Source: Cyanidioschyzon merolae
Taxonomy: Eukaryota
Direction: 5' to 3' (one strand)
NCBI GenBank assembly: GCA_000091205.1
Contig: AP006485.2
DNA length: 64,000 nt
Numbering within the stretch: position 1 is the first letter of the stretch; each line of letters opens with the position of its first letter. The position numbers and the translations under genes were made by a program. Shown one piece after another: positions 6,625 through 64,000 of this stretch. Below the pieces are notes generated by a model, which saw only the letters and a list, made by a program, of their open reading frames with translations, was not told the origin of the DNA and made no database searches.

Positions 6625-7136
6625 GAATGATGGCCCTTTCCGAGTCGTATGAGCCACCCGCTGGAAGGTTGCTTGGCGAGTCGCGGTTGACCTCGCAGTC
6701 CCGCCCGCTGCATCCACTCCTGCAGCAGCAGTTGAGGCGTCGCACCAACCCAGGTCCGCTTCGTGATCGTTTGCTCTTCATTTGTTGAAGCAGGCGAGCC
6801 CTGCGCCCTTCCTTGACCCAGAGACGCTGCCGAGAACGCTGCGCTAGACTGTGTCCGGCAGACACTCGCACCCATTTCAGTGCTGGTCGAGTCCGCGTCC
6901 AGGCGCTGAGCACGTAAACGCCGTGCGGCAGCTTTTCGCTCCTTGTACGCCTGAACGGGGTCCAAGTTGGTTTCCGTGGTTGTGAGGCCAGCTCCTAAGC
7001 CCGCTGCAGGGCCCGCACTAGACGCCACATCGCCCGTGCTTCGAACAACGCCACCAGCTCGTGTGGAGAGTGACGAGACCACTGCACCGCCGGGTCCGAC
7101 TCGAGTACGTCGTCGATGACGCCCTGAGCCACCCAT
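1140..7136 (-). CDS. DEAH-box (DExH) ATP-dependent RNA helicase, ~2000 aa, with long N-terminal extension and low-complexity insertions
   Basis: Single 1998-aa ORF. Walker A 'AETGSGKTTQ', motif II 'ILDEVHERS' (DEAH), motif III 'FMSATANA', motif V/VI 'ICATNVAESSITVPDVVAVIDTCRVR' and 'QRAGRAGR'. A long insert separates motifs III and IV. Poly-Q and (TS)n tracts present. The true start codon within the ORF is uncertain. Confidence 0.7.
1208..1262. repeat. (GCTGGT)n hexanucleotide microsatellite, ~9 units
   Basis: Read directly: ggtgctggtgctggtgctggtgctggtgctggtgctggtg. Encodes a (TS)n run at the C-terminus of the helicase ORF on the minus strand. Confidence 0.8.
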
Positions 7137-39700: not shown

Positions 39701-41510
39701 AAAGAGTGCCACTGTGGATGCTGTGGGTGTCTGGCGGAGCGGCTCGACGTGTTCGCGATCACTCAACTGAAAGCGCGCTACAGGTTGACGTTGTTCGAGC
39801 AGCAGCGCCTCCCCGATGCTTGCTGCAAGTTCACAACGACCATCCGCGGGGAAGCGAAAGAGCTCTTGGCGCGAGCGAGGCTCCAGGCACACGATCTGTT
39901 CGTTGATTGTGATCAAGGCCGGAACCGGAAGCAGGTTTCGAAATTCCAGAACCGGTGCTAACCACACCTCCAGGCTGCCGTCTTCGTGGATGTGTCGGGA
40001 TACCCGGAGTACGCGGTTATCGCACCAGTGCACCATGTGAGCGACCGTTACCGCCTCGCCGTACAGTGCTCGCATCGCTGCTGCCTGCACTGAGAAGCTC
40101 TCACACCACACCGTAGCATCTGCGCTGGCAGGGTTCGCACCGGAGTCAGTCAGCGTCTCCTCAAAAGCGACTGCCAGTGCTCTAATATCGGCAAGGGCGC
40201 CAATGCGGATACTCTTCTGTGGCGGTAGCCGATGGAAAGTCTCCAGCACCAGCGACAAATCCCGTCCACTGCTACCTCTACCACCAACACTACTACCACT
40301 ACTACTACTACTACTACGAGTAGTGGTAGTGGTACGAGGCATACGACTGCTCGTCTGCCCTAGACAGCGCAGACGCAGCGTCGTATGCGCACAGGCATTG
40401 TGTACGGTTATAGGCGCCTGAAGGCAGAAGTGCCAGCCCGTTCGGCATCGCGTCACTCGCCAGTGGAGTCGCTCCCACAGCAGCTGTGCTGAGCAAGGAG
40501 GTACGGTTGTGCACTGTTGCGCATCAAGTGGGTGCGCAGATGTCGCTGACAGCTGTGCGACTGTTCTAGCGTCGCCGCTTTTGCTACTGCTGGTACTGCT
40601 GCTTGCAGTTGACGTCACTGCTGCTGCTGACCGTGTCCCTGGCAAAGCTGCAGCGACGCTGGGTCGATTCCCAATGAGCGACCTTGCAGAAGTTTCTGTT
40701 GCTGAAGCCTCACTCGCGACGAGCGCGTCGCCAGCTCGAGTCCAAGAGAACCACGTAGGCGTATCGCCTTCGATGGAGAGCGCTCGAACGCCCAGTTGCA
40801 GCGTCTTCATAGAGGCACTCGAACTCGTGACCTGGGTCGAGCCCTGAGCTCTTGACTGGATCCGCCGGAGCGCGTTTGGTGCCCAGCTGGATTGCACCGG
40901 AAGCACCGCATGCACCGTTCCCGCAGCGACACAGAATCCTGAAGCTCCAAGGCGTGCTGGATGCTCCTCGGGCGTTGTGCTCGTTGCTGGGCGCTCCGGA
41001 GCGCTTTTCTTGCCAGCTGCAGGCGCTGAAGGCATCTGGTGCACCGCATCTGGCCCGTGTGCTTTGTCACCGCTCTTCTGGTTGCCGGATGCCGGCATAA
41101 GCGCACCATTGTTGCTAGGGATGATGATCTCAAGGTCCGCATCCGTCTCATTGGAGAATCGATACGCTCGCTGGTACACTGTCGGCAGATGCGCTCGTCG
41201 ACCGGTGAGATACTCCCAGAGCAGCGCGAGCTCGAGTGCATCCTGCTCGGAGCCTTGAATCCGAACAGGCTCCCGATGCAGCGGACTCAACCATATCCGA
41301 AGCAAGCCAGAGGGTCGATGCTCATGCAGACGCAACTGCAGTCGAAACGGGTGCAACCGTGGCTCATACCGATCCTGTCCACCATCGTAGGCGTCGACGG
41401 CGAACGTGCACTGCGTCTGCAGCTCCTGGTATGTGTCAGTGACCTGATAAACCAAGGCGAGTTGGCTCATGGTCAGCGCCACCAGGGGGAGCACCCCACC
41501 GCTACTGCTA

Positions 41511-41544
<34 letters not shown>

Positions 41545-44500: not shown

Positions 44501-47152
44501 AACCAGCGGCCTGCTGCGTACGCTCATCCGATGTCGCGTTTCAACATGTGAACGCGCTGGTGCCGTCAACGCTGTCGCATCGCCAGACCAACTGGTGTTG
44601 CGTATTGGATGCTGGTGCTCATAGGCGAGGCGCAACAGTGCTCCTGACGATGCGTCGGTGCTTGCGTCGACAAAGACTACTGGATAAAGGTCGTCGTGTA
44701 GGTGCTCACGCGCCTGCACAACAACATCACCCGTTTGTAGCGAGATGCACGTGCGATTGGGTGTCCTCTCCAAAAGCAGATGCAGATGTCGGAGTTGGAT
44801 GTCGGCGAAAGGCCTTCGATCTGAAAGCTGCAGGCTCATCTGGGTATCGTCGATCCGCAATTCGATGCGGAGACCTGCAGCATCTGGTTTCCACTGAATC
44901 TGCTGGAGCGTAGACTCCAAATCGGTGACTTGCTCATCCACGTGCTCCTGTACAAAGCCTTGAAAACGTTCACCGAGCTCCTGCGCCAAGCTAGCCGGCT
45001 CAACGACGATTTTGGATTCCTCGCGCTGCTCCGAGTCTAGCCGAGCAGAGCGCGCATCAGCCTGAGGCTGGTGCTCGGATGGTTGACACAAAGTGTCAGT
45101 AGTTGCGGGCCAAATCCGCTCCACTGCGGTGTGACGCTCTTCGCGAGCAGCAGGAGCAGCAGTCGACCTAGCAGTTGGCGTCGGTATTCCCGATGTGACG
45201 TCCACACCAGACGCTGAATCCTTTGTCGCAGGTGGCGCTGAGCTCCAGCCGAGTGTGGTGGAGATCCAGCCCAGCCAGCCGGTCGACGCTGTGGCCCCAG
45301 TTCGAGCTGTTTCTGCTGTCCCGCTGGCGTCTTCAGCGGAGCCAACGACTGCGGAAACAGCTCGACCTTGATCAACGATGCTGCGTTTGGTGTTCGCTCC
45401 TGGTGTATACTGAGGCCTTTCGGCGTTAGGCTGCAGTGGTGCTCGTCTGCTGGGGTCACGTTCAAGCGCCCTGTGGTATCGTTGTATTGCCAGACTCCGA
45501 AAGTAGCGGATTTCATCGATGCTTAACTGTTGCTCCAGAGCTGCGACTGCCTCTTCCAAGTCCGCTGGATCGTTGGCAAGAGAGAGTGCCAGAGCTTCCC
45601 GTGTACCAGTGGATGCTTGGGTGCGGTCATCAGTTTCCAGTTTCACTCGCGTGTAGAGCGATATGTAGCGTTCTTTGCGTCGATGCCAAGCACCAAGATC
45701 CTCGAGCACGAATGGACGATACAAACTGGATACAAATGCTCGAACACAAAGAAGCGCAAATTTCCAACGGTTTCGCGCCCTACTCGGGTGCTGCTGCTCT
45801 GTCGCCTCTAGGGCCTGGATATCGCGCGGAAGCTCTGCGGATTGCCGCTCCTCCGGAGGAGGCATCCAGTTCAGATATCGTGAGCGATAGCGATTCCCAA
45901 ACATCCACAGATAAGGTTCGGGGGCGTTCATGAGCACCAACAAGTCTGAGCGTCGTCGCCATCCCAACCAGGTTGCGTAGCTCTTCAGTGCCGTCACCGT
46001 CTCTACCTGAGACTGTTGCAGTTGCAAACACCAGCGTTCAACACCGAGACAGAGTGAGACTCTGGTGGTGCTGTCGCTCGTCGACTGGCCAGACGAATCG
46101 TGGGGCGCTTCTGTATCCGTCGCCAAGGTGCTTGGGTACGGTCGCTCTATTCGTAGTCCGACATACCCATAGCTGGGCCTGCACAAAAGAAAGGGTTCCA
46201 TGATCTTCGCGAAACGCTCATAGTGCTCCGACAAAGATTCTCCCGCTAAGGCTGTGAATGCGGCATCCGCTGGCGTCGACTGCGAGCGATGCTGGCTCCT
46301 CATTGGTGTCAGGTAGCAGGCCAGACCATGCACCCGTAACTGTCGATCGAGGATCAAGCGCATCCTGGGTGAGGTCGCGGCCTCATTCTGGGTAGGATGA
46401 TCCAGATGAGGTCGCCATTCATGACGATAATCGGGGTCTGTCGACTTATCAGAAGCAGCGGCATTGCTATCGATCAGGCTGAGTTGCCGGAGCATCAATC
46501 CGCAACTGCTCTTTCGTGTGCCTTGAGACCGCCTCCCTTCGAGCAGGTTTGTTTCCGGTTCGACAGCGATGAAGTCGACATGAATATGCACCCGTTCTAT
46601 CTGCAACTGTAGACGACGAAGCAGAAATGCAGTGGCTCTTCCAGCAAATGTCTGCAGCCAGCCGCCGTCTCGAGCGCCTCCTGTCGAGGCACCGTTGTGC
46701 TTGCTGGACGCAGGCAGCGTCTCTTGCGAGAGCTGCTGCTCTCGTGTCGCAAGTGTCCGAGCCCAAGACTCGAGACTCTGACGCTGCTCCTCGTCGTCTA
46801 GGCGGAGAAGTTCCGCTCGAGTGGTCTGAAACGAGTCAGCGTTGTTACTGGGGGCTTCACCCGGATACCAGCACAGCTCCAGGTACACGTCTGCGATGCT
46901 GATGCTGATGATTCCATTCCACCGCGCTTGGATGGATAGCGTGCCTAGGCCAGCCCGTTGGAGTTGAAGTTCTTTGATTCCGAGATCTTGACGCCAATAG
47001 CGCTCGACCGCACCGGTTTCGAGTTCGAGATCGTGAACCTCAAAGTAGCCCCGCTGCCCTAAAGCGATTAGGACTTGCTCCCGATCTAGTCCACCTCGAA
47101 TAAACGTACCGACCTTGCTCGCAAGAAATCGATACAGCGCTTCTTCGAGCAT
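36701..47152 (-). CDS. VPS13: VPS13/chorein-family bridge-like lipid transfer protein (3483 aa)
   Basis: N-terminal chorein-N motif 'MLEEALYRFLASKVGTFIRGGLDREQVLIALGQRGYFEVHDLELETGA...LGTLSIQARWNGIISISIADVYLEL' matches the VPS13/ATG2 N-terminus. Single uninterrupted 10.4-kb ORF. Low-complexity inserts include poly-Q, (GN)n, (DAA)n, (PV)n. The C-terminal region is consistent with VPS13 ATG-C/PH-like tails. Confidence 0.8.
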
Positions 47153-47199: not shown

Positions 47200-47850
47200 A
47201 GAACCGGACGACGGCCACGCACCAAACGCCGTTCTGAAGCAAAACGTTGTCGCCGTCAGCGGTGGACAGTTGTGGCGAGAAACTCGCTATGGACAAGACG
47301 TCCCCAACTGACGTGCAGACGCCTCCCCGCCGGTTTGGACCGGCCACCCACAACTGATTCCAACTTTTTTTTTTAATATAGTTCCACTTTGAGCGGTTGT
47401 CCCTTAAAATTCTCTCTTGTCCACTCTGGAGGTCTTCTCTCCAGCACCGCACATCTCCTCATATTGATTGCTGCGTTCAGGTCTCGGTTCACGAACTCCA
47501 TACGTCCACTGCCTCTTGCTAAACTCATCATTGCGAGCAGTCCTGGCACTCGCGCCTTCTGTTCCACGACAGTCTTGTCACCTTCTTCTTCTGCTTGGTT
47601 CATTGCTGGTCTTCTCTCGATGGTCGACGAGAAGAGAAATTTTTCTATTTTCACCGGTACCTGGCAATGGCGGCCCTCCAGAATCCCAGACTTCCGTCTT
47701 CACACCTCTCCCTCGGTGTTTTTCCTCAAATAAACGCAATTCGACCACGTCTGCTATCAACTCGCGAGAGAGAATTTGACTACACGCACCTGGGGGTATC
47801 ACGCAATTGAGCTGAGAGATTATACCAAGCGAAAACACTCCGACACGATC
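47200..47850 (-). mobile_element. Fragment (copy C) of the Fanzor/TnpB-like element family: 3' end only, retains the RuvC-III motif
   Basis: ORF 47373..47654 (-) encodes '...MEFVNRDLNAAINMRRCAVLE...' (RuvC-III). Shares the invariant block 'ccaactgacgtgcagacgcctccccg' and 'ggaccggccacc' with copies A, B and D. About 80% identical to copy A over ~450-650 bp. Lies immediately upstream of the VPS13 start codon. Confidence 0.55.
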
Positions 47851-48222
47851 GATGCGCTATGACGTCAGATCATCCGCTGGAAACGACGACTACATATGAG
47901 CGCGCGCTGTACGACGAGTCTACCATCATCAACAGCGGTAATATTCAGATCACTTTGGCGGTGTATCTGTGCATTGTGGCAGCTTTACAGTCCAAGGCCG
48001 CGCGTGAAAGCGTCTCTTGTGATCCTCGATCTGAGGCAACGTATGCGTCATGTGCATGAATCGAGCGGCGATTTCCATTCAAGGCTACTCCAAACCCTAA
48101 TTCCAGCTTGCGATCATGAAAAGCCTCCGCAAAGTGTTCGCAAGCTCAAAGACTGTCGTTTCCGCTAAGATTCGGCTCGTGCACGGCTGAGTCGTCATCA
48201 TTCTGAATCGTATTTTCGGCGG

Positions 48223-49431
48223 CTACCGCTCACGCTCAACTGATTCCAGCATTTCCGACACATATCGCCACACCGTGTTCGGATCCTGGTCGTGCGGGCA
48301 ATGACCGACAGCTTTCAGAGCAACAAATCGATCCACATGTGGATTGCGTGCAAACAGCTCTCGTCCGAGGGCGAAAGGTTCCCACGGATCACGCTCTCCC
48401 CAGAGGACCCAGATTGCGGGCGGATCTTTTCGAGCAGTTGCAGCCATCTGTGCAATGCTTTCGACGAGCTCCTCTGCCAGCGGGCCGCGATCATACGACG
48501 TGAACGCTAGAAATACATCCAGAGCACCGGGGCGCCTGCTTGGGGCCCGAATCCGCTCTACGAGCTCGGTACTGATGATCTGGTCCGCCTCAGGGCCATC
48601 AACAGCGTAGGCTGAGCAGAGTAACCTGCGGAGCGTCGCTGGCCGAGATACCAGAGAGAAGAAAAACTTCGCCACGGGACGAAATCCCAATACGCGCAAC
48701 GCTAATGGAGTCGTCCAGACGCGCAGACCCCGTCGTTTCTTATAGTGCAGCTGGCGAAGAGACGGATTCAGACACATAACTGCCCGAATACGCGTGCCCT
48801 GCATACCAGGATGCTCTACTGACTGGCGCAGCATGTCGCAAGCAGCTTGAAGTGCGGCAACACAACCGATTGAATTTGCAACGAGAACAACATCACGCTG
48901 TTGCGAAATCCCGGTATCTGACGCGGTCACCACAACAGTATTGATGAAATGAAGGATCTGCTGTGCCCAGCTTTCAAACGTGTACGAAAATGTCGGAGAG
49001 CCAACTTTGCCGTCGCCTTGCGTCGTGAACAGCGGTGGTGGCATATCAGCATCACCAAAGCCCAGCAAATCCAGCGCATACGCGTCGTAGCCCGCCTCCG
49101 AAATGATGTTGAGCATCTTCTGCCAGTGAAATGCCCCAGCACCGAAACCGTGAATGCATATCACAGCAGGCCTTGCCGGTGACGCCGGCGGAGCTGCAGG
49201 TTTCGCCCAGTACGTACAACGGAATCTTTCAAACAAGTAATCTTCTTGCCGAAAACCTGGCGGCAACGGTAGGAGCGGTTGAACACTCCTTAAACATTCC
49301 TCGAAAACACCACCTACATTCGTAGTGGGGTCAGCGCTCAAAGTAGAGTCGAAGTCACGACGGCCCGTTGCTCTCAGAGCGCTGTTCACCGAGTGCCCGT
49401 TTCCTTCATTTACGTCAGCCTTAACACCCAT
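48223..49431 (-). CDS. Alpha/beta-hydrolase fold protein (~402 aa)
   Basis: 'VICIHGFGAGAFHWQKM' (HGxG oxyanion region), 'GHCPHDQDP' (His of the triad near the C-terminus) and 'LVANSIGC' (nucleophile elbow GxSxG-like). The six-frame ORF extends to 49851, but its first 140 codons lie in the repeat element, so the start is set at Met141 (codon 49429-49431). Confidence 0.65.
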   Translation of the reverse strand: MGVKADVNEGNGHSVNSALRATGRRDFDSTLSADPTTNVGGVFEECLRSVQPLLPLPPGFRQEDYLFERFRCTYWAKPAAPPASPARPAVICIHGFGAGAFHWQKMLNIISEAGYDAYALDLLGFGDADMPPPLFTTQGDGKVGSPTFSYTFESWAQQILHFINTVVVTASDTGISQQRDVVLVANSIGCVAALQAACDMLRQSVEHPGMQGTRIRAVMCLNPSLRQLHYKKRRGLRVWTTPLALRVLGFRPVAKFFFSLVSRPATLRRLLCSAYAVDGPEADQIISTELVERIRAPSRRPGALDVFLAFTSYDRGPLAEELVESIAQMAATARKDPPAIWVLWGERDPWEPFALGRELFARNPHVDRFVALKAVGHCPHDQDPNTVWRYVSEMLESVERER

Positions 49432-49555
49432 AACGGCTCCAGTGCCTCCAGGCCGAGGGAGCTGACGCCTTCTAGCACTCAAGAGCGAGCGTCGCGGCCG
49501 TTCGTTACTTTTCGAGTGAAGCAGCACCGGTGCCAGGCGACAATGACCGAAGCGC

Positions 49556-50167
49556 TCACCCGTACAAACCTCTGAAACGTACCCTGGGTGGACACTCGCA
49601 CCAACACAAAACATCTTTCCAAAGACAAACGTTGCCCCCGGCCGTGTACAGTAGTGGCGAACGCGCCCTAGGCAAGGGGTCTCCAACTGACGTGCAGACG
49701 CCTCCCCGTTTTTTTGGACCGGCCACCAACGTCTGCTTCCATTTTTTCTCATATAGATCGACTTTGAGAGGTTGTCCAATAAAATCCTCTTGTGTCCAGT
49801 CTGGAGGTCGTTTCTCCAGCACCGCACATCTCCGTATATTGATAGCGGCATGAAAATCTCGGTTCACGAACTCCATACATTTCGTGCCGTTGGGAGCTGT
49901 ACTCACCAATACGAGTAACCCTTGAACTTTCGCCTTCCTTTCCAGTTGCTCCTCCGCCAGCGGTCCGTACTTTTGCAATTTCCTCAGCGCTCTTCTGGCA
50001 CTTTTCCATCTCCACCCTCTGAAGCGTGCAGCCCAGTTCCTGGTATGTATAGGACGTCCGGAACTCATATACAGGTATCGTAACGAGACGCCGGGCGCAC
50101 TCCTTGTACAGCTTCGTCGCTGGAGCTGGCGTAGTTCCTTTTCTGTTCTTCCAGTGCCTTGCTCCAT
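49556..50167 (-). CDS. Fanzor/TnpB-like nuclease, C-terminal segment with RuvC-III (copy A)
   Basis: '...[26 protein letters not shown]...' matches the TnpB/Fanzor RuvC-III consensus (NRDxNAAxNI) preceded by a Zn-finger Cys. The last ~20 codons read into flanking DNA beyond the repeat boundary. Confidence 0.55.
   Translation of the reverse strand: MEQGTGRTEKELRQLQRRSCTRSAPGVSLRYLYMSSGRPIHTRNWAARFRGWRWKSARRALRKLQKYGPLAEEQLERKAKVQGLLVLVSTAPNGTKCMEFVNRDFHAAINIRRCAVLEKRPPDWTQEDFIGQPLKVDLYEKKWKQTLVAGPKKRGGVCTSVGDPLPRARSPLLYTAGGNVCLWKDVLCWCECPPRVRFRGLYG
49600..49760 (-). ncRNA. Candidate omega-RNA (scaffold/guide) region at the 3' end of the copy A Fanzor-like ORF
   Basis: A nucleotide-invariant 26-mer across all four copies plus conserved 'ggaccggccacc' and 'aaacgttg' blocks, located where TnpB/Fanzor omega-RNAs map. 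Assigned by inference only. Confidence 0.15.
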
Positions 50168-50837
50168 ACGCTTCTACGAGCTTCTGACGGTCATCCTCCT
50201 TGAGGGCGCTCAACTGATTGAAACAATTCGCAAACGCCCGCTGCTTCACACCGTATAGATTCATTCGCAGACGAGCCCACCGGGGCTTTCTATACTCCTC
50301 CCACAGCGCATCCCAATGGGCAACACGAAATTCCATGAATTTCCGAAAAGCTTCACAGACCGCTCCGCGGCTCGTCGCCTCGCTCAAAGCTTCCAGGTGA
50401 TGCTTTATTCCTGCATTCCACGTAACGATTATCATCCTTGCATTCACTACAACGGATTCTCGATAGTATCTCGCTCTCGAGAACCTCAGCAGACGCATGT
50501 CTTTCTGGCGTAAATTACCGTCCATGCCATCTTCCGCACGCTTCGGTGCTGCGATGGTGATGATATTCGTGTTCCCAGGATCCGCGCCAACCACAATGTC
50601 TTTATCCTGCACTTCCTGTGTGGCAGGATCCGCCTCTTTCTTTCCTTGATGCTTCGTCGCGTCAACCATAAAGTCGTTATCCTGCACATTCTGTTCGGCA
50701 GGATCCGCCTCCTTCTGACCTTCATCCTTCACCGCGCCAACGACACGGTCGTTATCCTGCACTTTCTGCATCACAGGTTCCGCCTCTTTCTCTTTTTCAT
50801 CCTTCACCGCGTCAGCGACAAAGTCGTCATCCTGCAC
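49749..50837 (-). CDS. Fanzor/TnpB-like nuclease, central segment with RuvC-I and RuvC-II (copy A)
   Basis: '[18 protein letters not shown]' (RuvC-I, GxDPG) and '[22 protein letters not shown]' (RuvC-II Glu plus the first Zn-finger Cys). Frame shifts relative to the RuvC-III segment between ~50000 and ~49900. Confidence 0.55.
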
Positions 50838-50872
50838 CTCCTGTGTCGCAGGATCCGCTTCTTTGATTTTTT
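50575..50872. repeat. 75-bp tandem repeat (x ~4) inside the Fanzor-like ORF, copy A
   Basis: Encodes 25-aa units '[25 protein letters not shown] / [25 protein letters not shown] / [25 protein letters not shown] / [24 protein letters not shown]'. The last unit is the RuvC-I strand. Confidence 0.6.
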
Positions 50873-51182
50873 AATGCTTCGCAGAGGGCGAAGCGAAAGG
50901 CACAATCGGACGGTCCACTTTCAAGCGCCGATAGTGTACATACAAGGTTACTCCATCGGTCTCGATCAACGCAGTGAATACCTTTTGGCTTCTCACTTTG
51001 AGCCGTTTGAAATTGAAGATGTTCTTCAAGTACGTCGCCCGGTTTTCACCGGTGAAGTCATCCCTGCTAACAGTGAACACTGGACTGATCTCCTTCATGA
51101 TGCCGTAAAACACGTCCGAATCGATATTCACGAAACGTGACTTGATGCTGCACATTGGAACCACGTTGAAGCGCTTACCCAT
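50871..51182 (-). CDS. Fanzor-like nuclease, upstream segment '[21 protein letters not shown]...' (copy A)
   Basis: Identical to the copy B segment 57672..57983. Separated from the RuvC-I segment by a single in-frame TAA. Reading through in frame gives '[17 protein letters not shown]', a further unit of the internal repeat. Confidence 0.4.
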
Positions 51183-51203
51183 TAGGAAAGCCTTCCGTCT
51201 CTC

Positions 51204-51941
51204 CTACTCTTCATTTGTCTTTTCGCTCAGGTTCATCTCCGCTTCGCGTTCGAGCTCCGGGTCCAAGAACACAGAATACCGTACGACGATGCGATAGTAT
51301 CTCCCCTGATCCTTTTTCAACTCTGATATCTTTTCTGTTGGATTCACCAGCCCCAAGATTGCACGGCGCTCTTGTATAGCCGCACGGATCACAGATGCTT
51401 CATTCGTGCTCCTGCGTGACGTCTTCTTGTCGACAAATTCGACCTCATCTTCATGCTTGCGATCTTTCGTTATGCCATTGATAGTCGCCTATATTCATTT
51501 GAGAGAGCTGCCTGGGTAGAGTGCAAAAACGGCGCGTATCATGAAACGTTCGAGTTTCACGATCACGTGACTCTCCAGTTTCGTGATGTACTTCGTCGCC
51601 CCTTATATGTAAACATTCGAATCACCCCTGTATGGAGTACTGTTGAAGCTGTAGAGGGGATGTTTTTCGTAAAGGCCATGCACTAGCACATTTTCCCTCC
51701 GCGTTTCCGCTGTTCCAAGCATCAGGTATCGAATAAAGGTCTCGTCGAATAACTCGTCCAGAATCTCGACCGTTTCCATGTTCGCGACGTCTTCGTACAT
51801 CTCCCTCGCCAAATGCATCAGTCTTGACGACGCCTTGAAAATACTCTTGGAGTACGAATCGAAACGTTTTTCGATAGCGTCTCGCAACTTTTCCCTGTAC
51901 GGATCCTTGATGTGTCCAAGAAGAAAGATTTTCACCTCCAT
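51204..51941 (-). pseudogene. Disrupted N-terminal region of the copy A Fanzor-like gene
   Basis: Homologous to the continuous 252-aa ORF of copy B (57983..58741) but split into 51603..51941 and 51204..51392 by a 1-nt deletion and an in-frame TAG (tgg->tag) 7 codons upstream of the MGKRF Met. Confidence 0.4.
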
Positions 51942-52151
51942 CTCATTCTACAGTCATCTTTCCCGCCGCCTTCGACGTAGGGCCTCTCGCTTTCAGTTCT
52001 TCTTCTCTCCTGTTTCTTCTGGACTCGGCACTGCTTTTTGTTTGTCTCTAGCGGCCGGCGACCCCGGCCCTCCAGGAGCGTCGACTTGCTTTTTCATAGC
52101 TTTCCGTTTTTTAGTTTTTTCTTGAAAAACAACGCTCTGTGAACCCTTCTG

Positions 52152-52158
52152 TTATATA
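52152..52158 (-). promoter_or_regulatory. TATA-like box (TATATAA on minus strand) ~210 nt upstream of the copy A nuclease ATG
   Basis: 'gaacccttctgttatatactgcg' is conserved in copy B ('gaacccttctattatatactgcg') at the same distance. Confidence 0.2.
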
Positions 52159-52813
52159 CTGCGAAAAACACTTGACTAGACTTGTTTGAAGTTTCAAACA
52201 GAAACGAACTTAAAGCCTGTACTTGGCTACGACCTGAACGGAAATACAACTTTTTACAGATGAACAACACGCTACTGATCCCAATCGCGTTTCCCTTCAA
52301 CGAAGGCATACGCATCGTGTCAGTTGATTCCCCGATCTCCCAGATGCGATTACCGAGCGCGATGCGTGCGCCTCGCGAGACACCACGCCGATCGATGAAG
52401 GACACGTGCCTCAAGCCCATAGTGCAAAGAAACAGAGCTCGCTCGGGGGCACGCCTGCGCTATCGCTTTTGGCGCGAAACGCGAAATCGAAACCGCGCCT
52501 GCAGGGATCGTCTCGAACCGTTTCTCCTTCGCCGTGATCATCGATTGCCGCGGATTCGAGGCATGGTGCGGGGGAATTTGAATCGCTCGTGGGCTCTGTC
52601 GTTGCCGCTGCTGGACGTAAATATTTTTTTAGAGTTGGTGTTGTTCAACGGACGGCTGGGAACGGGCTCTTTCTCGTTCACGACACTAAATATTTTCCAT
52701 CAAAAGAAGTTTTATACAAAGGTTTCCAAAGTATAATATCAGGATTTGCTACGCTCATGGTATTTTTGGAGAGCAATATACGTAGAGGCCGCCCAGGAGG
52801 TCAAGGCTTTCGG

Positions 52814-53006
52814 ATGAAGCCTTCGCTATTTATTATTTGTTTCATACTTTGCAGTGTGTTCGCGTCTCTCGTACGGGCAGCGACTGTGACACCTACACCG
52901 ACTGCGACTGCGACACCGACTGCGACACCGACACCTACACCTACACCTACACCGACACCTCCATCGGCTACGACACCGACACCGACACCGACACCTCCAT
53001 CGGCTA

Positions 53007-53043
<37 letters not shown>

Positions 53044-53066
53044 TCCATCGGCTACGACTACGACTA

Positions 53067-53097
<31 letters not shown>

Positions 53098-55207
53098 TCC
53101 ATCGGCTACGACTACGACTACGACACCGACTGCGACACCGACTGCGACACCGACTGCGACACCGACTGCGACACCGACTGCGACACCGACTGCGACACCG
53201 ACTGCGACACCGACACCTACACCGACTGCGACACCGACTGCGACACCGACTGCGACACCGACTGCGACACCGACTGCGACACCGACTGCGACACCGACTG
53301 CGACACCGACTGCGACACCGACTGCGACACCGACTGCGACACCGACACCGACACCGACTGCGACACCGACTGCGACTGCGACTGCGACTGCGACTGCGAC
53401 TGCGACGGCGACTTCTACGGCAACTCCGACACCGATTGCGACGATGACTCCGACAATTACATCATCGCCAACGATTACTGTAACAGCGTCTCCAACGACA
53501 GTGACGATGACACCGACGATGACTCCAACTGCAACAACGTCACCAACAATCGTGCCGACGACGATTGCCACCTCGATTGCGATATCCGTTCAGAATCTTT
53601 CTCTTTGTTTGGCCGTGGCGACGGATTTGCAGAACGATCTCGAGGCTCGCTTCACGGGCCTGGTAGTGAATGTCAGCGTGACTGATAACTGCGACACGGT
53701 CTTCGGTTCGGGCACATCAAGGCGCCTCGCCACCACATTAGACAAGAGCAATCCTCGTCTGGAACGAGCATTGGTGCGCACGTCGGGCGGCAGTGTTGTG
53801 ACCTATGTGATTAAGATCTCAGGAGACACATCCCTCGCCAGTGATGCGCAAAGTGTGCTTCAAACTTTCACCGACCAGCTTTCTACAATTCTACCCTCTG
53901 GTGCGACACTTGCTATTATAACCCCGACACCGAGTGCAACGCCAACACCAGTTTGCACGAGTGAAATCTGCGGTTCTCCGGGCCAGTACACAAACCGGGA
54001 CGCTTGCGAGCAAGTCGGGTGCTGCTTTAACTCCCAGACGAACGCGTGCACCCTGAAGAGCGTCTCAGCGGCCTGCAGCGCTGTTCCAGTGACGCAGCGC
54101 GTCCCCTGCGGCTGGAGCTACATCTACCCCGACGAGTGCACTGCGATACCGGGATGCTGCTGGCAGCCAACGGCGAACGGCATCCTGGCACCCTGGTGCT
54201 ACTACGACATCAACCATGCACCGCAGGCCTCTGTAGCGCTGCAGGAGGTGCAGGCACCGGTTCCCCTCTGCCCGTCACCGGGAGCGCAGCGCCAGCCGTG
54301 CGGCAACGCGGGCATCAACCAGTTTACGTGCTATGCCCAGGGCTGCTGCTACGACTCGCAGGCGCAGAACCAGTGGGTGCAGAACGGCAAGCAGCAGAGC
54401 GACTTTGCGTCGAACCCGTACTGCTTCCAGCCCGAGAAGACGTGCGCGGTGGGCGAGTTTGAGCGCCAGCCGTGCACGAACGCGGTGAATCAGAACCAGC
54501 AGCTGAACAATAACATCAACAACAACCAGTTTGTGCGTCTGCTGAACACGCTTCTGTACGGAGAGCAGCACGGGACGCAGCGCACGAGCTACTCGCCGCA
54601 GCAGTGTCTGGAGGCTGGTTGCTGCCTGGGGCTCAGCAACGAGTGCTTCCAGCCGATGACCGAGTACGTGTGCCAGACCTACGGGTATGTGTCGAACTCG
54701 CTGAGCGGCACGACCGGCAACGTATCGAACTCGAGCTATATTCCGTGTGGCCCGGAGTGCTGCAACGCCGAGACGCAGAACTGCACGTACAACCCGTTCA
54801 GCAACAACAACAACCAGCAGCAGCAGCAGCAGCAGCAATTGCAACAACTGCAGCAACAACAGGTGCTGCTGCCGTCATTCTGTGTGTGCAAGGACCCTAC
54901 GAAGCAGTGCGGGACGTACCTGATCCCTTCGGATAACCTTGTGAACAAGGTGCGTTGCTGCCGCGCTGACGAGGAGTGCATCAACAACCAATGTGTGGTG
55001 ATTAGTCCAACACCGACTCCGAGTCCCGTGGCTGTGACAGCGACACCCTCTGCGACGGTGTCTGCAACAGTCTCTGCGACAGCTTCTGCGACGGTGTCTG
55101 CGAGTGCATCAACGAGTGCATCAGCGAGTGCTTCAGTTTCAGCCTCTGTGTCGACGTCTGCGAGCGCCTCGGAATCAGCGACATCTTCAGCTCCACCGAC
55201 TGCGTGA
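52814..55207 (+). CDS. Secreted mucin-like Thr/Pro-rich protein with 3-4 trefoil (P-type)-like cysteine domains
   Basis: Signal peptide '[23 protein letters not shown]'. Contains ~180 aa of (PTPTAT)n. Cys modules are '[21 protein letters not shown]', '[22 protein letters not shown]...APWCYYD' and '[22 protein letters not shown]...NPYCF', all matching the trefoil pattern RxxCGxxG..C...GCC[FWY]D..PWC[FY]. Also has a poly-Q/N tract and a Ser/Ala/Thr-rich C-terminal tail. Start taken as Met76 of the 872-aa ORF. Confidence 0.75.
52884..53440. repeat. 12-bp coding minisatellite (accgactgcgac)n encoding (PTAT/PTPT)n
   Basis: Read directly. It creates long shadow ORFs in other frames and on the opposite strand. 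Confidence 0.85.
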
Positions 55208-56355: not shown

Positions 56356-56967
56356 CTAGGTACTCTTCGCAAATACGTTCTGAATAAGCGACGTGACGCG
56401 CCCGCACCGAACGCCTCTCAAAAGACAAACGTTGCCCCCGGCCGTGTACAGTAGTGGCGAACGCGCCCTAGGCAAGGGGTCTCCAACTGACGTGCAGACG
56501 CCTCCCCGTTTTTTTGGACCGGCCACCAACGTCTGCTTCCATTTTTTCTCATATAGTTCAACTTTGAGAGGTTGTCCAACAAAATCCTCTTGTGTCCAGT
56601 CTGGAGGTCGTTTCTCCAGCACCGCACATCTCCGTATATTGATAGCGGCATGAAAATCTCGGTTCACGAACTCCATACATTTCGTGCCGTTGGGAGCTGT
56701 ACTCACCAATACGAGTAACCCTTGAACTTTCGCCTTCCTTTCCAGTTGCTCCTCCGCCAGCGGTCCGTACTTTTGCAATTTCCTCAGCGCTCTTCTGGCA
56801 CTTTTCCATCTCCACCCTCTGAAGCGTGCAGCCCAGTTCCTGGTATGTATAGGACGTCCGGAACTCATACACAGGTATCGTAACGAGACGCCGGGCGCAC
56901 TCCTTGTGCAGCTTCGTCGCTGGAGCTGGCGTAGTTCCTTTTCTGTTCTTCCAGCGCCCTGCTCCAT
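56356..56967 (-). CDS. Fanzor/TnpB-like nuclease, C-terminal segment with RuvC-III (copy B)
   Basis: '...[20 protein letters not shown]...'. About 98% identical to the copy A segment. The C-terminal tail diverges where the ORF reads into flanking DNA. Confidence 0.5.
   Translation of the reverse strand: MEQGAGRTEKELRQLQRRSCTRSAPGVSLRYLCMSSGRPIHTRNWAARFRGWRWKSARRALRKLQKYGPLAEEQLERKAKVQGLLVLVSTAPNGTKCMEFVNRDFHAAINIRRCAVLEKRPPDWTQEDFVGQPLKVELYEKKWKQTLVAGPKKRGGVCTSVGDPLPRARSPLLYTAGGNVCLLRGVRCGRVTSLIQNVFAKST
56400..56560 (-). ncRNA. Candidate omega-RNA region at the 3' end of the copy B Fanzor-like ORF
   Basis: Same invariant blocks as copy A, but the adjacent distal segment differs ('gcaccgaacgcctctc' vs 'gcaccaacacaaaacatctttcc'). 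Confidence 0.15.
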
Positions 56968-57136
56968 ACGCTTCTACGAGCTTCTGACGGTCATCCTCCT
57001 TGAGGGCGCTCAACTGATTGAAACAATTCGCAAACGCCCGCTGCTTCACACCGTATAGATTCATTCGCAGACGAGCCCACCGGGGCTTTCTATACTCCTC
57101 CCACAGCGCATCCCAATGGGCAACACGAAATTCCAT
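56558..57136 (-). CDS. Fanzor/TnpB-like nuclease segment with RuvC-II / Zn-finger start (copy B)
   Basis: '...[32 protein letters not shown]...'. Separated from the RuvC-I segment by a private frameshift. Confidence 0.5.
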   Translation of the reverse strand: MEFRVAHWDALWEEYRKPRWARLRMNLYGVKQRAFANCFNQLSALKEDDRQKLVEAYGAGRWKNRKGTTPAPATKLHKECARRLVTIPVYEFRTSYTYQELGCTLQRVEMEKCQKSAEEIAKVRTAGGGATGKEGESSRVTRIGEYSSQRHEMYGVREPRFSCRYQYTEMCGAGETTSRLDTRGFCWTTSQS

Positions 57137-57152
57137 GAATTTCCGAAAAGCT

Positions 57153-57638
57153 TCATAAGACCGCTCCGCGGCTCGTCGCCTCGCTCAAAGCTTCCAGGTG
57201 ATGCTTTATTCCTGCATTCCACGTAACGATTATCATCCTTGCATTCACTACAACGGATTCTCGATAGTATCTCGCTCTCGAGAACCTCAGCAGACGCATG
57301 TCTTTCTGGCGTAAATTACCGTCCATGCCATCTTCCGCACGCTTCGGTGCTGCGATGGTGATGATATTCGTGTTCCCAGGATCCGCGCCAACCACAATGT
57401 CTTTATCCTGCACTTCCTGTGTGGCAGGATCCGCCTCTTTCTTTCCTTGATGCTTCGTCGCGTCAACCATAAAGTCGTTATCCTGCACATTCTGTTCGGC
57501 AGGATCCGCCTCCTTCTGACCTTCATCCTTCACCGCGCCAACGACACGGTCGTTATCCTGCACTTTCTGCATCACAGGTTCCGCCTCTTTCTCTTTTTCA
57601 TCCTTCACCGCGTCAGCGACAAAGTCGTCATCCTGCAC
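57153..57638 (-). CDS. Fanzor/TnpB-like nuclease segment with RuvC-I and the 75-bp repeats (copy B)
   Basis: '...[18 protein letters not shown]...' identical to copy A. Truncated at 'RGAVL*' by the private 1-nt insertion. Confidence 0.5.
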
Positions 57639-57671
57639 CTCCTGTGTCGCAGGATCCGCTTCTTTGATTTT

Positions 57672-57983
57672 TTAATGCTTCGCAGAGGGCGAAGCGAAAG
57701 GCACAATCGGACGGTCCACTTTCAAGCGCCGATAGTGTACATACAAGGTTACTCCATCGGTCTCGATCAACGCAGTGAATACCTTTTGGCTTCTCACTTT
57801 GAGCCGTTTGAAATTGAAGATGTTCTTCAAGTACGTCGCCCGGTTTTCACCGGTGAAGTCATCCCTGCTAACAGTGAACACTGGACTGATCTCCTTCATG
57901 ATGCCGTAAAACACGTCCGAATCGATATTCACGAAACGTGACTTGATGCTGCACATTGGAACCACGTTGAAGCGCTTACCCAT
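57672..57983 (-). CDS. Fanzor-like nuclease upstream segment 'MGKRF...' (copy B)
   Basis: 100% identical in amino-acid sequence to 50871..51182. Confidence 0.4.
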
Positions 57984-58741
57984 TAGGACAGCCTTCCGTC
58001 TCTCCCAATCTTCTTTTTTTCTTCACTCAGCTTCATCTCCGCATTTCGCTCGAGTTCTCGGTCGAGAAACATGAAATAGCGCAGAATAAGACGATAGTAT
58101 CTTTCCTTATCTTTTTTCAACTCTGATGTCTTGTCTGTTGGATTCGCCGGCCCCAAGATTGCACGGTGCTCTTGTATAACCGAATGGATTACAGAAGTAT
58201 CATTCGTGCTGTCGTTAAACGCCTTCGTGTCGACGAATTCGACTTCACCTTCATGCTTGCGATCGTTCTTGATGCCGTTGATAATCTCCCATATTCCTTT
58301 GCGAGAGATACCCGGGTACAGCGCAAACACGGCGCGTATCATGAAACGTTCGAGTTTCATTGTCAAATGGTTCGTCAGGTTCGTGAGGTTCTTCATCTCC
58401 CCATAGTCGTAAATACTCCGGTCCCCCTTGTATCGAGTACCCTCGAAGCCGTAAAAGGGATGTTTTTCGTGGAGGGCATGAACCCGCTCGTTTTCCTCCC
58501 GCGCTTCCACTGTTCCAAGCATCAGGTATCGAATAAAGGTCTCGTCGAATAACTCGTCCAGAATCTCGACCGTTTCCATGTACGTCACGTTTTCGTACAT
58601 CTCCCTCGCCAAATGCATCAGTCTTGACGACGCCTTGAAAATACCCATGGAGTACGAATCGAAACGTTTTTCGATAGCGTCTCGCAACTTTTCCCTGTAA
58701 GGATGCTTGATATGTTTAAGAAGACAGGCTTTCACCATCAT
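57983..58741 (-). CDS. Fanzor-like nuclease N-terminal domain (copy B), 252 aa continuous
   Basis: 'MMVKACLLKHIKHPYREKLRDAIEKRFDSY...'. About 80% identical to the split copy A region. Ends at a TAA overlapping the MGKRF ATG ('cTAATGg'), caused by a 1-nt loss in a poly-A run. Confidence 0.5.
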   Translation of the reverse strand: MMVKACLLKHIKHPYREKLRDAIEKRFDSYSMGIFKASSRLMHLAREMYENVTYMETVEILDELFDETFIRYLMLGTVEAREENERVHALHEKHPFYGFEGTRYKGDRSIYDYGEMKNLTNLTNHLTMKLERFMIRAVFALYPGISRKGIWEIINGIKNDRKHEGEVEFVDTKAFNDSTNDTSVIHSVIQEHRAILGPANPTDKTSELKKDKERYYRLILRYFMFLDRELERNAEMKLSEEKKKIGRDGRLS

Positions 58742-58951
58742 CTCGTCGTACAGTCGTCTTTCTTGCCGCCTTCGACCTAGGGCCTCCCCCGTCGGTCCTT
58801 CTTCTCTCCTGTTTCTTCTGGACTAGGCACTGTTTTTTGTTTTTATTTCTGGCAGCAGGCGACCCTGGACCTACGGAATCGTCGACTTGCTTTTTCATAG
58901 CTTTTCTTTTCATTTTTTTTGTGTGAAAAAGAACGCTCCTTGAACCCTTCT

Positions 58952-58958
58952 ATTATAT
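58952..58958 (-). promoter_or_regulatory. TATA-like box upstream of the copy B nuclease ATG
   Basis: Conserved with copy A at the same spacing (~211 nt). Confidence 0.2.
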
Positions 58959-60209
58959 ACTGCGAGAAATCAATTGAATATGTTTACTTGAGGGTTGAGA
59001 CACAATCGAACTGGAAACTATGATTTGTTACGACTTCCACGCAAATACAGCTTGCCCGTTAGAACATCAAGAAAACGTGTCGTCACGGTCGCGTTTCTCT
59101 TCAAAGGCGACAGATGCGTCGTGTCTCGTAAGTGCCATACTTGGAGATGCACGTATCAAGCGCGCCATACAGGAAAAAGGACAGTGACCTACGATTTACA
59201 AGAAACGATATAAAATTTTTTCCCGCTCTACGATAAGCGTTTAAGGGGAAACAGATCGCCGTATTATCGGAAGCTTATGTTCGAGGCGGTAGGTCCCGCG
59301 AGCCGGTCGAGTCTACCGGGCTAGAGCTCGGTATCCCTCTTAAGTGGCTGCTGCCGCTGCTGCTGCTGCTGCTGCAAGACCTGCGCAGCTCGTTCACAAC
59401 GCATTTTATCCTGAGACTATGCACAGGATGCTGCGTTGGGCCTCGCCCTGGTCGCAGTGGAACCCTAGTATAGCGCTTCGCGCTGCCGTAGGTAGTGGGT
59501 CTGTCTGCCCATTTTGCATGTTTCCAGAATGACAAATAGCCCTGATTCCGTTTCAGGTGAATCATCCTCCCAGAGGACGCCCTTATTGGTATGGCAAAGC
59601 CGTTCTGTCTCTGTACAGCACCTGCTTGAGCGGTATAAGCGCAACAGCGGGTGCTCACAACAGGCTCGGCGCTCGATAGAACATACGAAACGACCAGTGT
59701 ATCAGAGAGGAAGTATGGGTAATGGGACTTGAGGACAGGTGCACTATGACAGTGATATCCCCGGAAGCCATTATCCGTTCCGAATTCTGGGATCCATGGG
59801 CAATGTAAACGTTTTTTCATCAAAAAGAAAAAACGCCCCGAGGCGGACTCGTCATCGAGACGCACATCCCTCTGGATCGAATCTCCGGAAGGCGCTTCTG
59901 GGCGATCGCAAAAGCCCTCAAGTGCATCTTTGTATTCTCAACGGATAGCATGCTTTATTCGGAGCGCTCAGTCTCGAGCGTTCCCTCTAACTTTAAGCAA
60001 TAGCTTCGTAGATCAGACAGCTGTGTTGTCAAAGAGCACTGTACCTAGTTTTGGCGAGGTCTATAGTGCTGGAGAACAAAACGATCACGGGTTTGTAGCG
60101 ATCTCGGCACCAGTGCTAGAAACAACCCTGCACTGGAGCTCGTGCGATCTAAAACCTGTAGTCGGACTTTTTAGAAGATCTGTCTGGCAAGGAAACAAAT
60201 CGTGGAACT

Positions 60210-62399: not shown

Positions 62400-64000
62400 G
62401 ACCGAAACGTCTCGTAAGACCACCGCACCCGACGACAACAAACATCTTTCGAAACAAAAACGTTGCTGCCGGCAGTAGACAGTACTGGCGAGAAACTCGC
62501 CCTAGACAAGAAGTCGCCAACTGACGTGCAGACGCCTCCCCGTCTTTTCCGCCCGGCCACCTACTGTGGGTACCATTTGTTCTTATATAGTTCCAGTTTA
62601 AGAGGTTGTCCAACAATGGACTCTCGTGTCACCGCTGGGAGCTTTTTGTCTATTCCCGCACATCTCCGTAGATTGATTGCAGCGTTAAAGACTCGGTTCG
62701 CGAACTCCATACGTTTCTTGCGGTTGACAGTCGTACTTACTAATGCAAGTAGTCCACGAGCTTCTCCCCTCCTTTCCATTTCCTCTCCCGTCAGCTGTCC
62801 CTTACTTTTTTATATCATCAGGACTCCACTGGCACTTTTCCATCTCCATCTTCTGAAGAGTACATCCCAACTCGTGGTGTGTATACGATGTTCGGAACTC
62901 ACCCACAGGTACCGTAGCGAGACCCAGTGCGCACTCCTTGCCCATTCCTGCCGTTGGAGCTGGTGGAGTCCCTTTTTTTCGGAGCCCAGCTCCCTACACC
63001 ATATGTAACAACGAGCCTCTGACTTGATCCTATTTCAAGGCGTTCAATCGATTGAAAAAGCTCGCGAATGCGTGATGCTTACCACGGCACAGATTCATAC
63101 GCAAACGTGCCCAGCGGTGCTTTGTATACTCGCCCTACAGCGCCACGGAATGAGCAACCCCAACTTCCAAAAATTTCAGAAAAGCTTGAATGTCCGCTCA
63201 TCGGCTCGTCACCACGCTCAAAGCCTCCAGGTGATCCTTCATTCCTACATTCCACGTAACGATCTTCTTCCTTGCATTCATTATACCGGATTCTCGATAG
63301 TATCTCTCTCTCTCGAAAACCTCAGCAGAAGCATATGTTTGTGGCGTAAGGTGCCGTCAGTGCAATCTTCCCTTCGCTTGTGAACAGCGATGGTTATGAG
63401 ATTCGTGCTCCAGGGACTAAGGCCGACGCCAAAGTGGTTTTCATGGGGCTTATACGTTCCATAGCCCGTCAACCTGTGTTCGTTCTTCGGCAAGGGCCGT
63501 AAAGAAAACGGGATAGGACGAGCTGCCTTCAACCGCTGATGGTGTACACATATGTGCGCCACATCGAGATCGATTGTTCCAGTGAATAACCTTTTTTTGG
63601 CCGGTTCGGGACACTTGAAATCGAAGATATTCTTCTCGTAGGCGTCCCGATCTTCACCGGAGACCTATTTGTTGATTACATCGAGCTATGGATAGATCTC
63701 TATCCTGAAGATGCAAAAGGACTATGGGGTCAATATACACAAAATGTGACTTGAACGCGCATAACCGACCGACATTGAAGCGCATCTGGAGAAGACTTCA
63801 ATGTCGTTTCTCGCACTCGTCTTTTTTTCCACACTCAGCTCCATGCCGACCCTGCGATCGAGGTCTCGGACCGAAAACATGAAGCAGGGCAGGATAAGAG
63901 AGTAACAACTCTCTCCGTCGTTTCTCATATCCGAGAGTTTTCTCTTGGGTTGACATGACCCAAGACCGAACGATGTTTTAGAATAGTCGCGCGAATTACA
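62400..64000 (-). mobile_element. Degenerate copy D of the Fanzor/TnpB-like element (continues past the window end)
   Basis: About 75% identical to copy A from the 3' end through the RuvC-I region and beyond (63600-63960 aligns to A 50990-51260). The RuvC-I Asp is lost ('GLSPWSTNLITIAV') and the RuvC-III Asp is replaced ('MEFANRVFNAAINL'). The invariant 26-mer is nevertheless 100% retained. Confidence 0.5.

Follow-up and report, generated by a model that had tools for sequence, protein, structure and literature searches.

The locus described here raises the question of how a protein that joins trefoil domains to a long Thr/Pro-rich repeat, an architecture classically associated with animals, comes to be encoded by a red alga among transposon copies. 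The window analyzed (the whole stretch of 64,000 nucleotides, from contig AP006485.2 of the Cyanidioschyzon merolae assembly GCA_000091205.1) contains on its plus strand, at positions 52814-55207, a single uninterrupted open reading frame (ORF) of 797 codons, from an ATG at 52814 to a stop codon at 55205-55207, and an initial annotation made from the sequence alone described its product as a secreted, mucin-like trefoil protein encoded between two Fanzor-like copies. The ORF is very probably a functional trefoil-only ("T") member of the cyanidialean Kelch/Trefoil/Hint family that acts as a secreted glycoprotein. The metazoan-type architecture that was proposed to occur here outside animals is indeed present in the red alga but is not new: the joining of trefoil domains to Thr/Pro/Ala-rich sequence is an established feature of the Cyanidiales and has been published (PMC1955436, PMC9812998, PMC13353863), so that the proposal is correct without being novel.

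Trefoil modules and layout of the protein

The assignment of trefoil domains is carried by profile matches. Pfam Trefoil (PF00088) matches the whole protein in three stretches with E=5.5e-13 and 49 bits, compared to a curated cut-off of 21, and a phmmer search of PDB sequences returns the trefoil factors (TFFs) TFF3 and TFF1, porcine spasmolytic polypeptide, and the trefoil domains of maltase-glucoamylase and sucrase-isomaltase, with E values from 9e-6 to 7e-3. The initial annotation had set the trefoil family against other Cys-rich families, none of which scores; CBM1, CBM18 and PAN/apple are rejected, Trefoil being the only Pfam match at E<=10 apart from one noise match.

The 36 Cys of amino acids (aa) 381-727 are grouped as six modules, and the mature protein has 38 Cys in total. 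Judged by the canonical six-Cys spacing C-x9-10-C-x9-C-x4-CC-x9-12-C, module 2 (54074-54199, aa 421-462; C-x10-C-x9-C-x5-CC-x12-C) is a canonical trefoil/P-type domain, which when searched alone scores 45.9 bits (E=5e-12) over profile positions 1-42 of 43, and module 3 (54269-54424, aa 486-537; x9, x9, x4, CC, x24) is a trefoil domain with a 24-residue third loop, which alone scores 32.1 bits (E=1.1e-7) over all 43 positions (1-43). The PWC motif is kept in module 2 and is PYC in module 3. Module 1 (53954-54049, aa 381-412; C-x4-C-x11-C-x4-CC-x7-C) is truncated and trefoil-like, with a partial match (profile positions 12-33) of 18.8 bits, under the 21-bit cut-off. Module 4 (54443-54646, aa 544-611; x9, x43, x4, CC, x6) is a degenerate trefoil whose loop 2 is interrupted by 43 Q/N-rich residues (aa 555-597), and it scores 7.5 bits as it stands and 17.9 bits once this insertion is taken out, both under the cut-off. 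Module 5 (54671-54784, aa 620-657; C...C-x3-CC-x6-C) and module 6, a C-terminal knot (54881-54994, aa 690-727; CxC-x6-C-x15-CC-x5-C-x4-C), have no match in Pfam. Of the at least three trefoil modules claimed at the outset, two exceed the Pfam cut-off by themselves; modules 1 and 4 are degenerate trefoils, and modules 5 and 6 match nothing.

The degenerate modules can be read with the help of an alignment of five cassettes, namely those of the window protein, Cyanidium caldarium CDCA10G3079 (P0007), and the more distant proteins P0146, P0183 and P0139. All Cys of modules 1 to 4 are invariant in the five sequences, including the relatives at 26-29% identity, and the Cys of module 5 are conserved in the C. 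caldarium protein and partly in P0146, while module 6 is nearly identical in the former and recognizable in the latter. The counterpart of module 4 in P0146, P0183 and P0139 is a canonical trefoil (GYPGIN..QC...CC..P....VPWCYY), and for this reason module 4 of the window protein is taken to be a decayed trefoil; its Q/N insertion is far shorter in C. caldarium. The alignment and the profile scores indicate a cassette of four trefoil-derived modules, two canonical and two degenerate, followed by two other knots.

The remainder of the protein consists of low-complexity sequence and one unusual insert. The reading frame is open upstream as far as 52589, and a second in-frame ATG located 20 codons 5' of 52814 is an alternative start; the N-terminus is hydrophobic with either. 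With the start at 52814, aa 1-22 (52814-52879) look like the signal peptide that had been predicted, with one basic residue, a 16-residue hydrophobic core of mean Kyte-Doolittle hydropathy 2.93, and V-R-A at positions -3 to -1. The Thr/Pro/Ala-rich repeat region (PT region; 52880-53572, aa 23-253) has a core array with a 12-bp period over 52881-53412, comprising 43.8 copies with 83% matches and encoding approximately 177 aa according to Tandem Repeats Finder. The length and period given by the initial annotation (about 180 aa of 12-bp repeat) therefore stand, and the unit requires correction from PTPTAT to PTAT. The composition of aa 24-255 is 48% T, 26% P and 16% A. The PT repeat also gives rise, as by-products, to two long ORFs that overlap the gene in other frames, at 52801-53571 (minus strand) and 52837-53685 (plus strand).

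Between the repeat and the Cys modules lie a middle domain (53573-53923, aa 254-370), with two Cys and two N-X-S/T sequons, and a short PT linker (aa 371-379). The middle domain has no match in Pfam and no homologue in a search of 5.8 billion proteins. It is present in metagenome contigs L006 and L007 at 98-99% amino acid identity, differing from the L007 counterpart at one nucleotide, and AlphaFold2 confidence is low across it. It is an orphan, lineage-specific insert whose homologues are limited to its own alleles.

The Q/N-rich sequence noted earlier is present as two tracts, one being the insertion of module 4 and the other a poly-N/Q tract read directly from the sequence between modules 5 and 6 (54794-54862, aa 661-683), the length of which varies among paralogues. 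The Ser-rich tail is likewise there: aa 731-797, encoded with the stop codon by 55004-55207, are rich in Ser, Ala, Thr and Val, with 38% S and 31% A over aa 746-797 and 12-bp tandem arrays at 55049-55136 (Tandem Repeats Finder). A glycosylphosphatidylinositol anchor was rejected, the C-terminal tail having no terminal hydrophobic stretch, as was a second transmembrane segment, which at the sole internal hydrophobic window (aa 251-269) would place the disulfide cassette in the cytosol. The description of the protein as mucin-like fits its Thr/Pro/Ala composition and extends no further than that, as no VWD, C8, TIL, CK or SEA domain was detected.

Family membership and selection

The genes of the window include Tic22, Pex16, an RCC1 protein, a DExH helicase, protein disulfide isomerase (PDI), malate/lactate dehydrogenase and a chorein/ATG2-type giant protein; Tic22, Pex16 and the others imply a plastid-bearing eukaryotic host. 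The PDI shares 99% identity with a metagenome protein, 76% with that of Cyanidiococcus yangmingshanensis and 55% with that of Cyanidium caldarium. By these sequence comparisons and the presence of C. merolae-type Fanzor1 elements, the trefoil gene belongs to a cyanidialean red-algal nuclear genome of the Cyanidioschyzon/Cyanidiococcus group. Look-ups by exact sequence retrieved neither the trefoil protein nor the PDI.

The trefoil protein itself has eight homologues among 5.8 billion proteins at E<=1e-3, six of which are fragments from hot-spring-type metagenomes with 82-98% identity; one homologue (P0008) matches the C-terminal fifth only. The best named homologue is CDCA10G3079 of C. caldarium (58% identity, E=3e-103), which has been described as a trefoil-only, non-subtelomeric example in a family built of kelch (K), trefoil (T) and hint (H) domains (Cho et al. 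2023, PMC9812998). Genes with these domains are the most prevalent subtelomeric duplications of the Cyanidiales, with 12-24 copies per species, and their linker is a Thr/Pro/Ala-rich repeat of up to 365 aa with 36% T, 19% P and 13% A (PMC9812998). "Trefoil factor" genes of C. merolae were drawn at chromosome ends in 2007 (Nozaki 2007, PMC1955436), these genes respond to nickel stress (PMC12112623), and a more recent study counts 13-16 TFF-like genes per species in variants labelled "K+T" or "T" (Plant Cell 2026, PMC13353863). In the tables of that study, as quoted for sister species, TFF-like members have SignalP Sec/SPI predictions, and most of the members quoted are expressed mainly in the cell-walled diploid phase (PMC13353863). 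Since Pfam gives no Kelch match in the window protein, the gene is assigned to the T-only subtype. There is no AATGGGGGG telomere repeat and no second trefoil gene within the 64-kb window; the trefoil gene is 8.8 kb from the right end of the window, with housekeeping genes on both sides.

The window protein and CDCA10G3079 have the same six-module Cys cassette in the same order, with 58-62% identity and each aligned Cys conserved. In both, a putative signal peptide is followed by a Thr/Ala/Pro/Ser-rich region without a kelch domain, and both genes are found among housekeeping genes with no telomere in view. Compared to CDCA10G3079, the window protein has a PT region about four times longer and a longer poly-Q tract; it also has the 117-aa orphan domain, a module 4 with the 43-residue Q/N insertion, and a Ser/Ala tail of 67 aa. 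Fanzor1 copies flank the window locus, whereas the C. caldarium locus has none.

Comparison with other copies of the cassette indicates what is kept and what is exchanged. Nei-Gojobori estimates of the ratio of non-synonymous to synonymous substitution rates (dN/dS), made on the Cys-rich part, are 0.28 versus the paralogue in L003, 0.22 versus the paralogue in L002, 0.35 versus the C. caldarium gene, and 0.08 versus the collinear contig L007, from which the cassette differs by seven synonymous and two non-synonymous changes. Selection on the cassette is purifying. The final 6.9 kb of a metagenome contig of 40.8 kb make up L007, which is collinear with window positions 47205-54451 at 96.4% identity and carries one of the Fanzor copies (copy 1) along with the trefoil gene and its middle domain. 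The PT repeat is approximately 354 bp (118 aa) longer in the window (53022-53244) than in L007 (5672-5804), a gap that is either a repeat-number polymorphism or a collapse in the metagenome assembly. In L005 (1-2298), a cassette with 97% identity lacks the middle domain and is joined directly and in frame to a PT repeat of more than 331 aa, so that only some copies of the family have the domain. In L004, L003 and L002, the part upstream of the cassette differs: it has a short PT linker and a segment ("...DFLNGIFALKKTFP") that probably derives from the end of a kelch domain, and in L003 stops precede this segment.

Fanzor1 elements and other genes around the trefoil gene

The trefoil gene sits within a local cluster of decayed Fanzor1 elements, all on the minus strand. 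Copy 1, of the CMe-1A family (49597-52408), matches aa 4-731 of CMe-1 with 65-69% identity in tblastn; copy 2 (56397-59053) matches aa 38-731 in four pieces and two frames with 57-79% identity; and copy 3 (62446-63964), which is older and partial, matches aa 248-734 with 43-49% identity and contains stops. A 3'-end fragment (47210-47566) matches aa 643-734 with 73% identity and has 75.6% DNA identity to copy 2. The direct copies at 49597-52252 and 56397-59053, between which the trefoil gene lies as the initial annotation had it, are 91.7% identical to each other and match the published Fanzor1 CMe-1; copy 1 was extended to 52408 by comparison with L002, and copy 3 has 76% DNA identity to copy 2 over 62446-63411. 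Every Fanzor1 copy of the window is split over two or three frames with stops or frameshifts, and the copies are relics: they contain GADPG, (Y/D)EFRTS and NRDF.AAINI motifs and no intact ORF with the D-E-D triad of RuvC. Of the window's last 17 kb, approximately 7 kb is element-derived, compared to approximately 100 bp of its first 47 kb. An isolated 35-aa fragment (CMe-1 aa 580-614, 54% identity) lies at 29014-29118 on the minus strand, far from the cluster.

CMe-1 is a 734-aa Fanzor1 protein of C. merolae encoded by the 3.2-kb element CMe-1A (Bao & Jurka 2013, PMC3627910). This element lacks terminal inverted repeats and is present in approximately 150 copies, each of which shares about 80% identity with the consensus (PMC3627910). 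The Fanzor1 label of the flanks is confirmed by the tblastn matches to this published protein, and that is the sole route to it, as neither the flanking ORFs nor their intact metagenomic homologues have a TnpB/Fanzor match in Pfam, NCBIfam, PHROGs, a phmmer search of the PDB or a profile search of the PDB. The homologous metagenomic proteins number 169, some of them tagged DUF8286 and intact ones among them; an AlphaFold2 model of the Fanzor-like protein, made from 13 sequences, has a predicted local distance difference test score (pLDDT) of 31. The relation of the flanks to TnpB rests on Bao & Jurka 2013 (PMC3627910). The window elements resemble CMe-1A in size (2.7-2.8 kb versus 3.2 kb), in occurring as many diverged copies and in lacking terminal inverted repeats, and differ in that copies 1 and 2 hold an expanded internal tandem repeat of 75 bp that is missing from the published protein. 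This repeat, located in the coding region at 50508-50880 in copy 1 and 57309-57681 in copy 2, has three to four units of 61-78% identity that encode acidic 25-aa units, of which CMe-1 has essentially one, just before the GADPG RuvC-I motif.

An independent paralogous locus, L002, has a nearly full-length Fanzor1 element (773-3575) about 3 kb upstream of its trefoil gene (6355-7104), divergently oriented as in the window, with a short-chain dehydrogenase ORF separating the two. Because two independent loci share an upstream element in divergent orientation, reshuffling of cassettes by way of Fanzor1 deserves consideration, and it is a possibility that recombination between the abundant CMe-1A elements helps to move or reshuffle trefoil cassettes. 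The adjacency may be coincidental, given about 150 element copies per genome and the concentration of both gene types near chromosome ends.

Within the Fanzor1 cluster, the trefoil gene lies between an alpha/beta-hydrolase gene and a dehydrogenase gene. The alpha/beta-hydrolase ORF (48223-49851, minus strand) overlaps the 3' end of Fanzor1 copy 1 with its N-terminal part (49597 onward); its Pfam domains begin only at aa 225, so the true start is probably downstream and the long ORF partly spurious. At 36701-47152 on the minus strand is an uninterrupted ORF of 3483 aa with an ATG2/chorein-type N-terminus (PF13329, 40 bits compared to a cut-off of 50), which by this sequence similarity probably encodes a VPS13/ATG2-like lipid-transfer protein. 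A GT2/GT92-type glycosyltransferase gene (24166-25602, plus strand) and the PDI gene (26525-28111, plus strand) are found approximately 25 kb upstream of the trefoil gene, a nearness that is probably a coincidence.

Proposed function, rival explanations and spread of trefoil proteins

The proposed function follows from the layout. The trefoil protein would enter the endoplasmic reticulum and the secretory pathway and form disulfides there from the 38 Cys that its mature form contains, and heavy O-glycosylation of the Thr/Pro/Ala and Ser/Ala regions would produce an extended, stiff stalk that resists acid and protease. The product would be deposited outside the cell, in an extracellular layer or a wall made of protein, chiefly at the diploid stage, which is cell-walled, and the multivalent trefoil cassette would bind glycans or glycoproteins and cross-link them, in the way that animal trefoil factors act on mucins. 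The flanking Fanzor1 copies would be neighbors rather than functional parts of the gene. Animal TFFs are divalent lectins for N-acetylglucosamine-alpha-1,4-galactose (GlcNAc-alpha-1,4-Gal) on mucins, and the only side chains of TFF3 that touch the sugar are Asp20, just before Cys2, and Trp47, just before Cys6 (Jarva et al. 2020, PMC7221086). In the window protein, Trp precedes Cys6 only in module 2, with Tyr in module 3 and Glu in module 4. If the cassette is a lectin, its sugar specificity probably differs from that of the TFFs, because the TFF Asp/Asn is replaced by Pro or Ile and the Trp is present only in module 2.

The two closest animal models each share part of this design. With TFF1-3 and the P-type domains of GH31 enzymes (MGAM, SI and GAA), the window protein shares a homologous domain of the form C-x9-10-C-x9-C-x4-5-CC-x10-12-C with R..CG and PWC motifs, and like TFF1-3 it is (by prediction) secreted, has several domains per molecule, an arrangement that permits multivalent binding, and is associated with Thr/Pro-rich, mucin-type sequence. 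TFFs are peptides of 60-106 aa that bind separate mucins, whereas the window protein has trefoils and PT region in one chain of 797 aa; unlike the TFFs and GH31 enzymes it has long loop insertions, and it has no GH31 catalytic domain. With metazoan mucins it shares a putative signal peptide, long tandem repeats of Pro, Thr and Ser ("PTS") that vary in number, and Cys-rich flanking modules. It is far smaller than the metazoan mucins, however, and Pfam detects in it none of their VWD, C8, TIL, CysD, CK and SEA domains; the O-glycosylation chemistry of red algae may also differ, and the likeness rests on composition.

Several points weigh against reading the ORF as a functional secreted glycoprotein with a lectin-like cassette. 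We infer the secretion, glycosylation, localization and ligand of the protein. The residue before Cys2 is Pro in modules 2 to 4 and Ile in module 1, and as the Asp/Asn of the TFFs is absent from all of them, lectin activity of the cassette may be lost or altered. The AlphaFold2 model of the cassette, made from an alignment of eight sequences, has a mean pLDDT of 43 and a predicted template modelling score of 0.24 and is unreliable, so the proposed trefoil fold and disulfide pattern rest on sequence. Residues 251-269 are moderately hydrophobic (Kyte-Doolittle 1.73), a stretch that is read as a buried helix rather than a membrane span. There is no synteny between the window gene and CDCA10G3079, the neighbors of which differ, and orthology with the C. 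caldarium gene is therefore not established. One "T"-only gene of Cyanidiococcus, among those quoted from the Plant Cell 2026 tables, has higher expression in haploid cells (PMC13353863), and the assignment to the diploid wall may not hold for the window gene.

Trefoil domains related to those of the window also occur elsewhere. A search of 1.84 billion cluster representatives with a profile built from the cassette gives 66 matches at E<=1e-3, cyanidialean fragments among them. The animal matches, which are from the cnidarian jellyfish Clytia, the coral Oculina, a newt and a pipefish, are of single domains only and reach at most 117 bits; Pfam was not re-run on the Clytia and coral proteins. 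The dinoflagellate Crypthecodinium cohnii has a protein with five Pfam trefoils (P0149), a transcript of another protist in MMETSP encodes four (P0142), and a GH31 enzyme of the glomeromycete Scutellospora has two (P0191). The eukaryotic metagenome/Logan proteins P0183 (found in L009 and in L010 at 3001-4236), P0139 and P0146 have the same module order as the window protein at 26-29% identity, and P0146 also has both C-terminal knots. TFFs have been said to occur, outside the Cyanidiophyceae, only in vertebrates, with a possibly convergent origin (Plant Cell 2026, PMC13353863); the protist, fungal and cnidarian matches, as far as their sequences can be trusted given possible contamination of transcriptomes, do not support that statement. 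As the module order, from a truncated module through three trefoils to two C-terminal knots, recurs at 26-29% identity and multi-trefoil proteins are found in a dinoflagellate and another protist, the cyanidialean cassette could tentatively be regarded, instead of as convergent or as an oddity of vertebrate type, as a branch of an old multi-trefoil extracellular family widespread in microbial eukaryotes, an origin that is possible rather than probable.

Among the explanations that compete with a secreted glycoprotein whose cassette binds glycans, a purely structural role is a serious rival to the lectin model, if a somewhat unlikely one: the protein would be only a wall scaffold rich in hydroxyproline or O-glycans, of the hydroxyproline-rich glycoprotein or arabinogalactan protein type known from plants and algae, its Cys modules serving as stable cross-linking knots or as caps that resist protease and acid, without recognition of glycans. 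The missing ligand-binding Asp/Asn, the restriction of Trp to module 2, the degeneracy of modules 1 and 4, the toleration of a 43-residue Q/N insertion and the variation of repeat length between strains are all consistent with such a scaffold. Purifying selection on the cassette nevertheless extends well beyond the cysteines (dN/dS 0.08-0.35), many non-Cys positions are invariant across the paralogues and C. caldarium, and module 2 retains the PWC motif that contacts sugar in TFFs. A less probable alternative is that of an acid shield, in which TFF-like proteins arose convergently in Cyanidiophyceae and guard the cell against an external pH of 0-3 as gastric TFFs and mucus do (PMC13353863). 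It was proposed by the Plant Cell 2026 authors (PMC13353863) and suits an acidophilic host, and animal TFFs are acid- and protease-stable (PMC7221086, PMC13353863). Its vertebrates-only premise fails, however, in view of the Pfam-confirmed multi-trefoil proteins of C. cohnii, the MMETSP protist and the glomeromycete GH31 enzyme, and similarity over the whole 43-position profile (E=5e-12) points to homology rather than convergence.

The position of the gene between degenerate Fanzor1 copies might suggest that it is a decaying passenger or pseudogene, a recently duplicated fragment that was brought into a transposon cluster and has lost its function, and some paralogues have truncated N-terminal parts, that of L003 having stops just upstream of its kelch-like remnant. 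This explanation is very improbable for a gene of 797 codons without an internal stop and with dN/dS well under 1, which has been kept together with its neighborhood at 96% identity in an environmental relative, with an excess of synonymous changes (7 versus 2) in the cassette. That the gene was recently acquired from an animal by horizontal transfer, or that the assembly is contaminated with metazoan DNA, is close to excluded. What speaks for it is that beyond the Cyanidiales and a few metagenome proteins, the next best profile matches are those of Clytia, newt, pipefish and coral; these animal matches are weak, however (117 bits or less compared to 616 for Cyanidium), and of single domains, the gene shares one contig with the red-algal genes and red-algal Fanzor1 elements that surround it, its G+C content is that of its surroundings, homologues are found in three cyanidialean genera, and trefoil proteins exist in protists.

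A functional T-only member of the Kelch/Trefoil/Hint family that acts as a secreted glycoprotein remains the preferred reading of the ORF. The discovery value of the locus is low, in that annotation of the family goes back to the C. merolae genome papers, with analyses following in 2023 and 2026. To this known family it adds a T-only member with a new insert domain of 117 aa and an expanded repeat; smaller new points are the reading of the cassette as four trefoil-derived modules rather than one, the absence of the sugar-binding residue of the TFFs, the presence of an orphan insert domain in some copies, and a wider spread of multi-trefoil proteins among protists. The trefoil proteins of protists weaken the argument for convergence made in Plant Cell 2026 (PMC13353863), and if the cyanidialean cassette does belong to an old family, the pairing of trefoil domains with Thr/Pro-rich glycoproteins would predate animals. 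If the function of these proteins were established, they could reveal the workings of a wall or mucus-like layer at pH 0-3.

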